64,000 nt of DNA from a plasmid, in sequence record NZ_CP019209.1; one strand, 5' to 3'. Of the stretch, positions 26,018 through 33,538 are shown piece by piece; positions within the stretch are counted from its first letter, which is position 1; each line of letters begins with the position of its first letter. The position numbers and the translations under genes are program-made. The notes under the pieces are model-generated. The model ran no database searches and was not told the origin of the DNA. It saw nothing but the letters and a program-made list of their open reading frames with translations.

Positions 26018-26085
26018 AAATTCGATTGTTTTGTTTAAATTGGAGTACCAAAACAGCATTGTAAAGTGTTATCCGTTTCCTTTAT

Positions 26086-27125
26086 ACCCGTGGTGCTAGT
26101 TAATTTTTTCCTAGAGGAAAATGTCTAAACATGTTGGTAAATCAACAAAAAAACGCATAGAGTAGTCTCAAAACTCCCAAGAAATGAGGACTACATATGC
26201 GTTCATCAAAATATACTGAACATTATACAGATACTTTTATAACATTCAAGGAAATTATGAGAACTGTTTCTAACATATACCACAATTGTGTACCAGATAA
26301 GATTAAAAACCGAAGAAATACTGATCAACTGAAGTAACGCGATACAGTGATTATTGCTTGTGTTATATGGGGCATAATTAATGGCTATACTAGCCAAAGA
26401 GCCACGTATAGAGCGGTTTGTTCCGTCTTATTTCCTAATGGTGACTTTCCTAGTAGGAGTCGATTCACTCGCTTAAGTTCAAACTTAGCTTACACTATCA
26501 AGATTATTCGATACTTTTTCATCAAGAAGCTCACCAAAGGTGAACTAGTCGGAATTATAGATAGTTTTCCTAGTCCATTATGTAAACCAGTTAGAAATAG
26601 ACAAGCAAAACTATTGAATCAAATAGCCAAAGTTGGCTATAACTCAACAAAAAAATCTTATTTTTATGGTCTTAAAATTCATATGATCGTTACTAAGACT
26701 GGCTTTCCGATTACTTACTCAATCACGAATCCAGGTGTCCATGACGTGAAAGTGTTAGAGACTTTATCGGAAGAAGCGAATCTTCCCAATATCCTAGGGG
26801 ACAAAGGATATATTAGCCATAAAATCCATGAAAAGCTTGCCCTTATGGGCATTACTATATCCGTTCCGCCACGTAAAAACATGGATAAATCAGAAAAACT
26901 AGACCACAGCTTACTTGGAAAACAAAGAAAAACAGTTGAGACTGTTTTTTCTTCCTTAGAAAAATTAGGTTGTCAAAATTTCAACTCACGTTCTGTTAAA
27001 GGGCTAGAGAGTAGATTTGAAAGCATATTACTGGCTTACAGTGTTCTATTAAGTCGAGCACAACGACGTTTTGAAGGAACTTTGAGATATTCTTTAGGAT
27101 ATTAAAATTAACTAGCACCACGGGT
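26086..27125 (+). mobile_element. IS982-family IS, copy A
   Basis: 20-bp terminal IRs; transposase with LGDKGY DDE region. Confidence 0.75.
26197..27105 (+). CDS. IS982-family transposase with an in-frame TAA after codon 46 (26335-26337); downstream 252-aa part in the same frame
   Basis: MRSSKYTEHYTDTF...NTDQLK * RDTV(IIACVIW...); the same stop is present in copy B. Confidence 0.6.
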
Positions 27126-28313
27126 TACTCTAGTATTTTTTTTATTTGTCGCAAAAAATGTTACAAATAGGATCACAATAAATATTCCTGCGAATACAAA
27201 AAATGGAGCAGTCAAATTTGTACTTCTTGTTAGAAATTGTGCTAATTGCATAGCAATAGGAGCTATAAAATTACCAATATTACAGCCAATAAAAATCAAT
27301 GAAGTAGCAAAATTAATTGTATTCTTTGTAGTGACTTTATCTAAGTTACTAAAGATAAATGGGAAGCACCATGATCCTGTTATACTTGATAAAAATAAAC
27401 CCGTTAGCAGGAACGTCATATTACCGTTTGACACAGCAATTAACAAATTTGAAATTATAAAGAATATAATTCCCAAGTATAGGGTTCCTTTTCCTATCCA
27501 CTTATTTATTGGTCCAAACATAAATCCTGCTAGTATTCCTAAGATAGGCATTAGAGCTAAATAGTTACTAGCATTAAAGTTTACCCCTTTAATTTCAGTT
27601 GCAATTGATGCAAATCGTACAGAAATAGCAATACTATTCATTACGAGTAAGATTGCAAATAGAACTAGGGCAAAAACCATTGGATTCATCTTTTCTTTTA
27701 CATGATTTTCAGGTATGTCACTATTTTCATCTCTAATTTCAGGAACTTTTAGCGCGAATAAGAGAGCTACAGGAAACGCAATTGCATAGACTAAAAACGA
27801 AGCCGTCCAATTAATGTTCACTAAAACTCCAGCAAGAAAAATAAGGATTGTCTGACCTAAAGCTTCCATTGAATTTCTAATACCTAATAGCGTTGCTCTA
27901 GTATTGCCAGAGTATAAAGAGCTGATATATGTCACAGCCAATGAATTATATACTCCTAAACCGGCACCTAATATTACTCGACTAATAAGAACGGTTTGGA
28001 AGGTAGCTGTAAATACTGGAATAATTCCTCCTATACCAGCTAATAATAAACCTAAAATTATTGTCTTTTTCATTCCTATTCTTTTGGCAAAGTAACTAGA
28101 TAATAAGATAAACAAAATAACAGTTATACTTGGTGCAGTTCCTAAAAGTTCACTTTGACTTTGTGATATCCCCAAAGACTGTTTCATTTGTGGAATAACA
28201 CCATTAATTGCTTGAGAGCTTGTTAACATTAGTGAAATACTTAAGATTGCTCCTTTTTGAAGTAAGCTTTTTTGGTTATTCATCTCTACTTTTCCTCCTG
28301 TGTTATAACCCAA
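27108..28313 (-). CDS. MFS sugar transporter (12 TM), last 5 codons (TRGAS) encoded by the IS982-family IR
   Basis: Hydrophobic 401-aa protein; start overlaps the alpha-galactosidase gene end. Confidence 0.75.
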   Translation of the reverse strand: MGYNTGGKVEMNNQKSLLQKGAILSISLMLTSSQAINGVIPQMKQSLGISQSQSELLGTAPSITVILFILLSSYFAKRIGMKKTIILGLLLAGIGGIIPVFTATFQTVLISRVILGAGLGVYNSLAVTYISSLYSGNTRATLLGIRNSMEALGQTILIFLAGVLVNINWTASFLVYAIAFPVALLFALKVPEIRDENSDIPENHVKEKMNPMVFALVLFAILLVMNSIAISVRFASIATEIKGVNFNASNYLALMPILGILAGFMFGPINKWIGKGTLYLGIIFFIISNLLIAVSNGNMTFLLTGLFLSSITGSWCFPFIFSNLDKVTTKNTINFATSLIFIGCNIGNFIAPIAMQLAQFLTRSTNLTAPFFVFAGIFIVILFVTFFATNKKNTRVTRGAS

Positions 28314-31492: not shown

Positions 31493-31547
31493 CCTCCTAT
31501 GTTAGATTTGGATAATTTTTGTTTTATTATGTTTATATTATTACATA

Positions 31548-32587
31548 ACCCGTGGTGCTAGTTAATTTTAATATCCTAAAGAATATCTCAAAGTTCCTTC
31601 AAAACGTCGTTGTGCTCGACTTAATAGAACACTGTAAGCCAGTAATATGCTTTCAAATCTACTCTCTAGCCCTTTAACAGAACGTGAGTTGAAATTTTGA
31701 CAACCTAATTTTTCTAAGGAAGAAAAAACAGTCTCAACTGTTTTTCTTTGTTTTCCAAGTAAGCTGTGGTCTAGTTTTTCTGATTTATCCATGTTTTTAC
31801 GTGGCGGAACGGATATAGTAATGCCCTTAAGGGCAAGCTTTTCATGGATTTTATGGCTAATATATCCTTTGTCCCCTAGGATATTGGGAAGATTCGCTTC
31901 TTCCGATAAAGTCTCTAACACTTTCACGTCATGGACACCTGGATTCGTGATTGAGTAAGTAATCGGAAAGCCAGTCTTAGTAACGATCATATGAATTTTA
32001 AGACCATAAAAATAAGATTTTTTTGTTGAGTTATAGCCAACTTTGGCTATTTGATTCAATAGTTTTGCTTGTCTATTTCTAACTGGTTTACATAATGGAC
32101 TAGGAAAACTATCTATAATTCCGACTAGTTCACCTTTGGTGAGCTTCTTGATGAAAAAGTATCGAATAATCTTGATAGTGTAAGCTAAGTTTGAACTTAA
32201 GCGAGTGAATCGACTCCTACTAGGAAAGTCACCATTAGGAAATAAGACGGAACAAACCGCTCTATACGTGGCTCTTTGGCTAGTATAGCCATTAATTATG
32301 CCCCATATAACACAAGCAATAATCACTGTATCGCGTTACTTCAGTTGATCAGTATTTCTTCGGTTTTTAATCTTATCTGGTACACAATTGTGGTATATGT
32401 TAGAAACAGTTCTCATAATTTCCTTGAATGTTATAAAAGTATCTGTATAATGTTCAGTATATTTTGATGAACGCATATGTAGTCCTCATTTCTTGGGAGT
32501 TTTGAGACTACTCTATGCGTTTTTTTGTTGATTTACCAACATGTTTAGACATTTTTCTCTAGGAAAAAATTAACTAGCACCACGGGT
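31548..32587 (-). mobile_element. IS982-family IS, copy B (inverted)
   Basis: Identical IRs; transposase ORF 31568-32326 identical to copy A except one residue. Confidence 0.75.
31568..32326 (-). CDS. IS982-family transposase, downstream 252-aa segment (copy B)
   Basis: Same as copy A (M to K at one position). Confidence 0.7.
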   Translation of the reverse strand: MIIACVIWGIINGYTSQRATYRAVCSVLFPNGDFPSRSRFTRLSSNLAYTIKIIRYFFIKKLTKGELVGIIDSFPSPLCKPVRNRQAKLLNQIAKVGYNSTKKSYFYGLKIHMIVTKTGFPITYSITNPGVHDVKVLETLSEEANLPNILGDKGYISHKIHEKLALKGITISVPPRKNMDKSEKLDHSLLGKQRKTVETVFSSLEKLGCQNFNSRSVKGLESRFESILLAYSVLLSRAQRRFEGTLRYSLGY

Positions 32588-33538
32588 TCCTTTATTTTTA
32601 TTAACAAGTTTTATCACAGGCTTCATATATTTGATTATATCTTCATCTTCTACATAGATATCTGTTATCATTACGACATCTGTACTATTTCGATTGAGTA
32701 CTTTCACTTGATCTCCAGCATTGATTTTCCCTCTAAATCTTTTAGGAATGAACCAACTATACATATGATTAGCATCACCAAAATGTGCTTTTATCGCATT
32801 CTCAGGATATAACTTATTCAATAGTTCATTCTTTTGAATTTTCAAAACTTCAAATCTATACTTATCATCTTCTGCTAATCTAAATAAATCTTCTAAACGC
32901 ATGTTTTCTAACTGTAAGTTTTGAAAATCTTCCGGTATAAATTTTCTATATTTCATTAATAATGAACGCCCAGCCCGATTTATTAGAATCTGGCCATTTT
33001 GGTCATCTCTATAAAGAATTCCGTAACCCATCAACGCCAATAGCACACGTGACGTTTTGTTACTTGTAATATTCATATTTCCTTGATTACCTGAGGCAAT
33101 GAAAGACTTATCTACTTGAATTAGGGTGAAATTCTCATTCAAATATGGTAGTAAAATTAATATATGTGAAAATCGAATCTTGAGATAGCTATTCCCCTTG
33201 AGATATTCACTGATACTTCTACTCAAATCATTTAAATTTTTATAATTATTTGTACGGAACGTATATATATCAACATCAGTTTTCTTTACATGAGAACTTA
33301 TTCTAAAATGAAAAAGCCTACTCTCAGAAAGAATTGAAAAATAGATACTTTCAGTAGATACTGAAGATTGAACAAAATTAAACTTGTATCCTTCAGGCAT
33401 AGCACTTTTAACAGTCTGCTGCATTAACTCGGATAATCTTTTGAAAGTAGTAATATATTTTTTACCAGCAAACCATACATATCTTTTTTCATTAAGTATG
33501 TTCACTATCTCTCCTCCATTAATTATATTTAGCATCAA
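32570..33538 (-). CDS. Hypothetical 322-aa protein (low GC); native C-terminus replaced by the IS982 end (…NKNKG then TRGAS*)
   Basis: The ORF reads into the IS IR. An iteron-like palindrome lies upstream. No recognisable domain. Confidence 0.4.
   Translation of the reverse strand: MMLNIINGGEIVNILNEKRYVWFAGKKYITTFKRLSELMQQTVKSAMPEGYKFNFVQSSVSTESIYFSILSESRLFHFRISSHVKKTDVDIYTFRTNNYKNLNDLSRSISEYLKGNSYLKIRFSHILILLPYLNENFTLIQVDKSFIASGNQGNMNITSNKTSRVLLALMGYGILYRDDQNGQILINRAGRSLLMKYRKFIPEDFQNLQLENMRLEDLFRLAEDDKYRFEVLKIQKNELLNKLYPENAIKAHFGDANHMYSWFIPKRFRGKINAGDQVKVLNRNSTDVVMITDIYVEDEDIIKYMKPVIKLVNKNKGTRGAS

Follow-up and report, generated by a model that had tools for sequence, protein, structure and literature searches.

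A probable compound transposon of two inverted ISEfm1 copies carrying an alpha-galactosidase operon on an Enterococcus faecium RepA_N megaplasmid

Compound transposons such as Tn10 (IS10) and Tn5 (IS50) consist of an inverted pair of insertion sequences (ISs) around passenger genes; the outer IS ends serve as the transposon ends, the target duplication surrounds the whole unit rather than each IS, and one or both IS copies may be defective. IS982-family elements measure ~1 kb, have inverted repeats (IRs) beginning with 5'-AC and contain one transposase open reading frame (ORF) (PMC7335449). One of them, ISEfm1, is quoted from ISfinder with a length of 1041 bp, a protein of 302 aa, an IR of 22/22 and a direct repeat of 7 (PMC7335449), and ISEfm1/IS19 of E. 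faecium is described as a solo element that disrupts ddl in VanD-type strains (PMC7335449, PMC4438569). Here we describe a 6.5-kb unit within a 64-kb stretch of the plasmid record NZ_CP019209.1 (the window; all coordinates refer to its full length), in which two ISEfm1 copies in opposite orientation bracket the genes for an AraC-family regulator (araC), an alpha-galactosidase of glycoside hydrolase family 36 (GH36) and a transporter of the major facilitator superfamily (MFS). We interpret the unit as a compound transposon that formed from the two inverted ISEfm1 copies and was inserted once, as a whole, into the megaplasmid, and assign to this interpretation a probability of roughly 0.88.

By its mechanism and architecture the element belongs with the textbook compound transposons of the Tn10/Tn5 type, with a known IS as its building block, and every structural feature of that type is present: the inverted IS pair around passenger genes, the outer IS ends as ends of the unit, the duplication around the whole, and defective arms. 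It differs from Tn10 and Tn5 in that its arms are members of the IS982 family, of uncharacterised mechanism, that it carries a sugar-catabolism operon instead of a resistance gene, that both arms in the window are disabled by the same nonsense mutation, and that a single insertion event is documented. With ISEfm1/IS19 it shares copies of 99.7% identity, the 22/22-bp IR starting with AC, a 302-aa DDE transposase if the stop codon is reverted, and AT-rich targets; compared with the ISfinder entry, the duplication is 8 bp instead of 7 bp and the length 1040 bp instead of 1041 bp. Whereas ISEfm1/IS19 appears in the searched literature as a solo, gene-disrupting IS, it is paired here as the arms of a composite.

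A repeat scan of the window found a 1042-nt inverted repeat with arms at 26086-27127 and 31546-32587, and trimming to the terminal IRs gave two 1040-bp IS elements in opposite orientation with 99.8% identity (Table 1). Both copies end in the same perfect 22-bp IR, ACCCGTGGTGCTAGTTAATTTT, which is intact at both outer ends of the unit; no further copies of these ends are present in the 64-kb window beyond the two arms. A preliminary description of this DNA had the two copies bracketing the araC, GH36 and MFS genes and an 8-bp direct repeat flanking the whole unit, and both observations hold; it had also called the copies identical, which has to be corrected, as they differ in two bases, at IS position 32 (G at 26117 in copy A, A at 32556 in copy B) and at IS position 761 (T at 26846 in copy A, A at 31827 in copy B; Met/Lys). 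The repeat is TCCTTTAT, and the inner flanks of the arms, TACTCTAG and ATTACATA, are unlike each other and unlike this outer repeat; neither arm has a target duplication of its own.

Table 1. Coordinates of the compound element, its cargo and its target gene in the window
Feature	Position	Strand	Remarks
Left 8-bp target-site duplication	26078-26085	.	TCCTTTAT; single copy in inspected empty-site alleles
ISEfm1 copy A (IS982 family, 1040 bp)	26086-27125	+	Left IR (IRL) 26086-26107, outward; right IR (IRR) 27104-27125, towards cargo
Copy A transposase frame, pseudogene	26197-27105	+	TAA at 26335-26337; 252-aa remnant ORF from GTG 26347
MFS_1 transporter, 391 aa	27108-28283	-	Last 5 codons and stop (27108-27125) from copy A IRR
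GH36 alpha-galactosidase, 749 aa	28286-30535	-	Pfam Glyco_hydro_36N, Melibiase and Glyco_hydro_36C, all full length
Terminator-like hairpin between araC and the alpha-galactosidase gene	30569-30595	-	Consensus match only
AraC-family regulator, 284 aa from ATG 31486	30632-31486	-	Good ribosome-binding site; same direction as copy B transposase frame
Promoter-like site over the copy B/cargo junction	31537-31565	-	TTAACT in IRR, 17-nt spacer, TG-AATAAT in cargo, towards araC
ISEfm1 copy B (1040 bp)	31548-32587	-	IRR 31548-31569, towards cargo; IRL 32566-32587, outward
Copy B transposase frame, pseudogene	31568-32476	-	TAA at 32336-32338
Target gene, 311-aa hypothetical protein	32570-33505	-	Weak DUF5839 match; end supplied by copy B IRL
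Right 8-bp target-site duplication	32588-32595	.	TCCTTTAT; direct repeat of the left copy

The arms fit the IS982 family in their length of 1040 bp, in an IR that starts with ACCCGTGG and in their single 302-aa frame. The 252-aa ORF matched the IS982-family transposase model NF033520 of NCBIfam with 252 bits (cutoff 130), the Pfam models DDE_Tnp_1 and DDE_Tnp_1_3 also matched the ISEfm1 transposase ORF, and copies in enterococcal plasmids with 99.3-99.7% identity are annotated as 'IS982-like element ISEfm1 family transposase'. These matches bear out the family named in the preliminary description, and the IS is assigned to ISEfm1 on the RefSeq annotation of the 99.7%-identical copies together with length, IR and protein size. 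In a survey of 19 complete solo ISEfm1 copies, those that kept a duplication had 7, 8, 8, 9 and 9 bp; a length of 8 bp is therefore typical for ISEfm1.

The target of the insertion is the 3' end of a gene for a hypothetical protein, in which the last two codons (NG) were replaced by codons from the IS inverted repeat, so that the native end ...NKNKGNG* now reads ...NKNKGTRGAS*; the fused end previously noted for this 311/322-aa gene is thus real. For the search of unoccupied sites, 600 bp left of copy A (including one TCCTTTAT) were joined to 600 bp right of the second TCCTTTAT. Seventeen plasmid records matched this query from end to end (100% of its length) without a break, at 99.3-99.8% identity, with E. 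faecium (including strains DO and NRRL B-2354), E. lactis, E. durans and E. hirae as hosts, and at least 43 more records matched query positions 1-951 in a single piece across the junction. Two empty alleles were checked base by base, and each contains a single TCCTTTAT and the intact gene end ...NKNKGNG* (both alleles read ...CCGTTTCCTTTATTTTTATTAAC... and ...GTTATCCGTTTCCTTTATTTTTATTAAC... across the site). No solo ISEfm1 was found at the target site, as none of the 17 full-length matches is split by ~1 kb. The empty alleles carry a few substitutions relative to the flanks in the window, whereas the occupied plasmids are 100% identical to these flanks, which suggests that the empty alleles are ancestral unoccupied sites rather than recent excisions.

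The cargo also occurs without ISEfm1. Only the composite encodes the MFS protein in its exact form, with the TRGAS tail; near-identical MFS proteins with native ends are found elsewhere. In these relatives the gene ends with ...TRVITN* or ...TRVMTNL*, in the unit with ...TRVTRGAS*; copy A cut away the last 3-4 MFS codons and, as had been proposed, supplies the last five codons and the stop, and copy B lies 61 bp upstream of araC. At the loci L147-L154, in assemblies labelled E. gallinarum, E. casseliflavus, E. faecium, E. thailandicus and others, the trio of araC, GH36 and MFS genes is 99.1% identical across exactly 27125-31548, with native sequence beyond both junctions and no ISEfm1 nearby. 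These loci share a segment of 5.0-5.25 kb with a sharp common left edge, TGTCAACGGCACCTTTAAAATGTAGGAAAAC, and with right ends that are variably truncated in an OsmC-like gene. The trio was found in at least five neighbourhoods, comprising Inc18-like plasmids with omega-epsilon-zeta, IS1216, IS30, and an integrase beside a type I restriction-modification system, and at 95.4% identity on a 525-kb contig of E. asini. As the IS-free trio stands in several contexts, the cargo is a piece of an operon that already moves among enterococcal replicons by other means.

Taken together, the empty sites, the absence of a solo IS at the target and the presence of the cargo without ISEfm1 elsewhere indicate that the TCCTTTAT repeat is a genuine duplication from transposition of the whole unit. 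The earlier proposal that the unit had transposed as one piece named the absence of an empty allele as its possible refutation; this search yielded the 17 uninterrupted matches and, in the two inspected, the single TCCTTTAT.

The window belongs to an E. faecium megaplasmid of the RepA_N type (rep_cluster_893; 100% identity matches). The whole 6.5-kb unit was detected in 125 plasmid records; 126 records contain the cargo, 114 of them with the left junction and 117 with the right junction; the exact MFS protein was found at the same site in 10/10 distinct assembly places. Dozens of complete plasmids, from many countries and sequenced independently of each other, contain the unit with both junctions at 100% identity. 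Three records without a standard junction were inspected and represent an IS1216-mediated deletion, an ISEfa4-mediated deletion and the one-IS context of pF39_1 (see below), and metagenome contigs bearing the IS end gave no new composite junctions. That all occurrences of the unit that were examined are at one site points to a single transposition, after which the unit spread together with its plasmid. The label 'mobile' in the preliminary description is not supported, as every occurrence found is at this site and both transposase genes in the window are prematurely stopped.

Several observations weigh against the interpretation as a compound transposon that moved as a unit. Neither arm in the window encodes a full-length transposase, so that the element is not autonomous here, and a 252-aa product re-initiated at GTG 26347, which may exist, would be 50 residues short at its N-terminus. 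The unit was not found at any second insertion site, as all 10 assembly places and at least 114 of the 126 plasmid records with the cargo have it at the same one, and no donor was found in which both IS copies still lie at the inner junctions. Experiments have yet to establish how IS982-family elements transpose (PMC7335449). Furthermore, 11 of the 19 complete solo ISEfm1 copies have no target duplication and two more have a short match only, which indicates that IS-mediated recombination is frequent in these plasmids. Several copies without a duplication (metagenome contigs L017, L019, L022, L040 and L085) share the flank GATTTATAGTAT or its reverse complement, which may mean that one neighbouring sequence recurs or that the IS prefers this site.

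The scrambled flanks of many solo copies, and the lack of duplications around the single arms here, would also fit a coincidental 8-bp match, in which case two ISEfm1 copies would have inserted independently around genes native to the plasmid. However, in the empty-site plasmids the two flanks meet without a break, around a single TCCTTTAT and with the target gene intact, and the cargo is thus not native at this locus; it is found elsewhere without these flanks, and two fixed positions would share 8 bp by chance with a probability of ~3e-5 (a hand estimate from the base composition of the window), so that we give coincidence next to no credence. Similarly, the sequence record might be at fault if the IS repeats had been collapsed or misjoined during assembly, as is illustrated by two contigs of 2.0 and 2.9 Mb with 224- and 286-bp gaps in both IS copies; but the same unit with both junctions recurs at 100% identity in dozens of independent complete plasmids, and the single-nucleotide differences that distinguish the arms recur across records, which makes an artefact extremely improbable. 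A route by recombination or by a replicative cointegrate, in which a single ISEfm1 transposed replicatively or sat at the site first and the cargo came in by homologous recombination between IS copies, followed by deletions, deserves more attention, since exchange through IS copies does occur (p1_AJ_C_05 has a right part of the pF39_1 type; see below) and the unsettled mechanism of the family (PMC7335449) leaves room for it. A cointegrate, however, would have its IS copies in direct repeat, and those of the unit are inverted, with the same end, IRL, outward on both sides; a solo IS puts the right-hand TCCTTTAT beside IRR, not beside IRL; recombination between inverted copies inverts DNA and does not insert it, and hence cannot convert a solo-IS site into the observed arrangement; and there is no solo ISEfm1 among the 17 full-length site matches. 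We regard this route as very unlikely, and prefer the single transposition of the whole compound unit.

The transposase frames of both arms are interrupted by C250T, which gives TAA for CAA (Gln47; Q47*) in the 302-aa frame and leaves a 46-codon fragment and the 252-aa ORF from GTG in each arm. RefSeq-derived tables contain no transposase coding sequence (CDS) at either arm, consistent with arms handled as pseudogenes, and the GenBank record AP026594 has a 46-aa and a 252-aa ORF for each. With Q47* in both arms, further movement would need ISEfm1 transposase in trans. An intact 302-aa transposase is encoded by the 99.7%-identical copies annotated as ISEfm1 and is present at loci L005 and L006; among relatives of the element, both arms are intact in p111_212kb and one in p_AK_C_05. 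At position 250 (stop T or Gln C), the states of copies A and B, in this order, are (T,T) in the window, (C,C) in p111_212kb and (T,C) in p_AK_C_05, and at position 761 they are (T,A), (T,T) or (A,A) across plasmids. The states of these two positions are found in all four combinations, and every haplotype class but two recurs in several records. These patterns imply exchange between the two arms, most simply by gene conversion, in which either the inverted arms or further ISEfm1 copies of the same cell would have been the partners. Gene conversion apparently spread the transposase-killing mutation to both arms, which would amount to a self-immobilisation of the element.

Further changes show that the element is decaying. 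In addition to Q47*, ISEfa4 (tnpA and the gene for the RNA-guided nuclease TnpB) is inserted in araC in a sizeable sub-lineage (including loci L132 and L133), IS16 is inserted in another record of the unit, and partial deletions were also found. No inversion isomers of the cargo between the inverted arms were found in 13 of the 14 two-armed occurrences checked; the single rearranged two-armed record, CP131819, has part of the composite inverted relative to the flanks, which appears to result from recombination between two ISEfa4 copies. Two large contigs, CP025392.1 (2.9 Mb) and PJEV01000002.1 (2.0 Mb), contain the element together with a RepA_N gene and the plasmid flanks, and for this reason they were rejected as 'chromosomal' copies. 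Within each of them, matching gaps of 224 or 286 bp lie inside both IS arms, at different positions, and these are most likely repeat-assembly artefacts, or else the plasmid sequence was joined to the chromosome.

The structure, the target duplication, the empty sites, the IS-free relatives of the cargo, the single site and the nonsense mutations are observed directly, and from them we infer an order of events. In a donor enterococcal replicon with the araC/GH36/MFS operon, one ISEfm1 would have inserted into the last MFS codons and a second, in opposite orientation, 61 bp upstream of araC. ISEfm1 transposase would then have acted on the two outward ends, which have the same perfect 22-bp IR, and thereby moved the whole IS-cargo-IS segment. 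The unit would have landed in a RepA_N megaplasmid, in the 3' end of the hypothetical gene beside a YefM-YoeB toxin-antitoxin pair, with duplication of the 8-bp TCCTTTAT. It probably inserted once and was afterwards inherited and spread with the plasmid family, with no further transposition, and its decay would have followed when Q47* was passed between the arms by gene conversion, leaving any further movement dependent on transposase in trans.

The gene identities given for the cargo in the preliminary description agree with the Pfam matches (AraC regulator, GH36 alpha-galactosidase and MFS_1 transporter). The enzyme is a convincing candidate for a GH36 alpha-galactosidase, with an E-value of 3e-265 against PDB entry 8k1a and ~1e-250 against AgaA/AgaB of Geobacillus, and its stop codon lies 2 nt ahead of the ATG of the MFS gene in an operon-like arrangement. 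For the MFS protein, only the generic Pfam model MFS_1 matched; MFS_2 (GPH family) was under the cutoff, LacY_symp gave no match, all NCBIfam matches were far under their cutoffs, and the best relatives in PDB are efflux-type transporters (E ~1e-6 to 2e-6). Thus the searches of Pfam, NCBIfam and PDB placed it in none of the known alpha-galactoside transport families (MelB/RafP/LacS of the GPH family, LacY-like RafB, or Msm-type ABC transporters). The coupling of the MFS and GH36 genes is kept in every context and in E. asini, which supports the prediction that the transporter serves the same pathway as the enzyme; the coupling does not name the substrate. The cargo is accordingly predicted to provide uptake and hydrolysis of alpha-galactosides under AraC-type control, and of the 'raffinose/melibiose-utilisation module' proposed before, the GH36 enzyme stands, and the sugar-uptake role of an MFS protein without a characterised relative is a prediction only.

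A different set of genes for such sugars, an msm-like raffinose cluster, is present in other RepA_N megaplasmids (NZ_CP072885, 51149-71317), with a LacI regulator, two sets of ABC-transporter genes, and the enzymes GH4, GH36, an amylase-family enzyme and sucrose phosphorylase. Judging by papers that cite Zhang et al. 2011, this cluster, and not the composite, is probably the agaA/agaB raffinose element that these authors reportedly characterised by experiment. It resembles the composite in belonging to the same megaplasmid family and in containing a GH36 alpha-galactosidase; it differs in its separate locus and architecture, and its GH36 is 48% identical to that of the composite. The cluster uses ABC transport and LacI, and the composite has MFS and AraC and no sucrose-splitting enzyme.

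A diverged allele of the trio, 96% identical overall and in another context, is carried by pF39_1 (NZ_CP072882). It retains ~30 bp more native sequence past the MFS gene and has a single ISEfm1, on the araC side, 5 bp further out than in the window (ATTACATAATATC at the IS junction, compared with ATTACATA in the window) and with a different outer flank. The two ISEfm1/araC junctions are at 9417-9440 in NZ_CP072882 and 9412-9430 in CP138458 for the one, and at 31540-31548 in the window for the other. The window-type and pF39-type alleles differ at ~9% of positions in the araC-proximal 1.5 kb. In p1_AJ_C_05 the composite is at the TCCTTTAT site, yet the right-hand 1.5 kb and the IS/araC junction are of the pF39_1 type; the simplest explanation is a homologous exchange that crossed over within the alpha-galactosidase gene and within the IS. 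Upstream of araC, ISEfm1 thus seems to have inserted on two independent occasions at points 5 bp apart, on diverged alleles, which may reflect either a preferred target or selection for regulator expression driven by the IS.

Outward or hybrid promoters are created by the IS982-family elements ISAba825, ISAba4 and IS1187 (PMC7335449), and the likeness here is an IS end 61 bp upstream of araC. The promoter-like site over the junction of copy B and the cargo, however, is known only as a consensus match, with a -35-like TTAACT and a TG-extended, -10-like AATAAT, and such matches are not enriched over shuffles in this region. At the alternative junction, which is 5 bp longer, the promoter-like spacing would in our reading be lost. 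We mention a hybrid promoter at this junction as a candidate, and as speculation.

The surroundings of the composite are typical of a mosaic megaplasmid backbone, and include a set of sugar ABC transporter genes (6464-10655). Other IS transposase genes are dense at 12004-14722 and 18696-19532 (IS1182-like, IS256/Mutator-type and IS3-type by Pfam), and the ORF at 21697-22383 appears, by correspondence, to be the IS1216 copy annotated in matching plasmids. At 24746-24967, a RelE/ParE-like toxin ORF lies beside an AbrB-type gene; the ORF has 73 aa here and 95 aa in the empty-site plasmids and in p111_212kb, and may be truncated. To the right of the target gene, imperfect inverted repeats of ~125 nt (33935-34059 and 34837-34960; two blocks with 84% and 79% complementarity) surround a toxin-antitoxin pair of ParE/RelE-type toxin and AbrB-type antitoxin (34064-34636), directly beside a tnpA/tnpB pair of ISEfa4 (IS200/IS605) at 34995-36564.

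Among the hits inspected from text searches for IS982 or ISEfm1 together with 'composite transposon', none describes a composite on an IS982-family element, the word 'composite' is absent from the review of the family (PMC7335449), and literature searches found no paper describing this alpha-galactosidase composite. It is conceivable, but in our view rather doubtful, that the element is the first well-documented natural compound transposon on an IS982-family IS. If so, the series of IS-free cargo, empty target, and occupied target with 8-bp duplication would constrain the mechanism of the family, because two identical outward ends were used across 6.5 kb. Nothing fundamental is changed by the element, whose sequence is already present, unnamed, in more than 100 public plasmid records.

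The RepA_N megaplasmids of E. faecium are thought to aid gut colonisation by hospital lineages through their genes for carbohydrate utilisation. The composite illustrates how such a module may be recruited, as a circulating alpha-galactoside operon that was apparently captured by ISEfm1 and pasted into the megaplasmid backbone, and its later fixation in place and erosion fit the view of compound transposons as short-lived. It would also show, by a natural example, that passenger DNA can be mobilised by an IS982-family element, a topic that is not discussed in the review of the family (PMC7335449).

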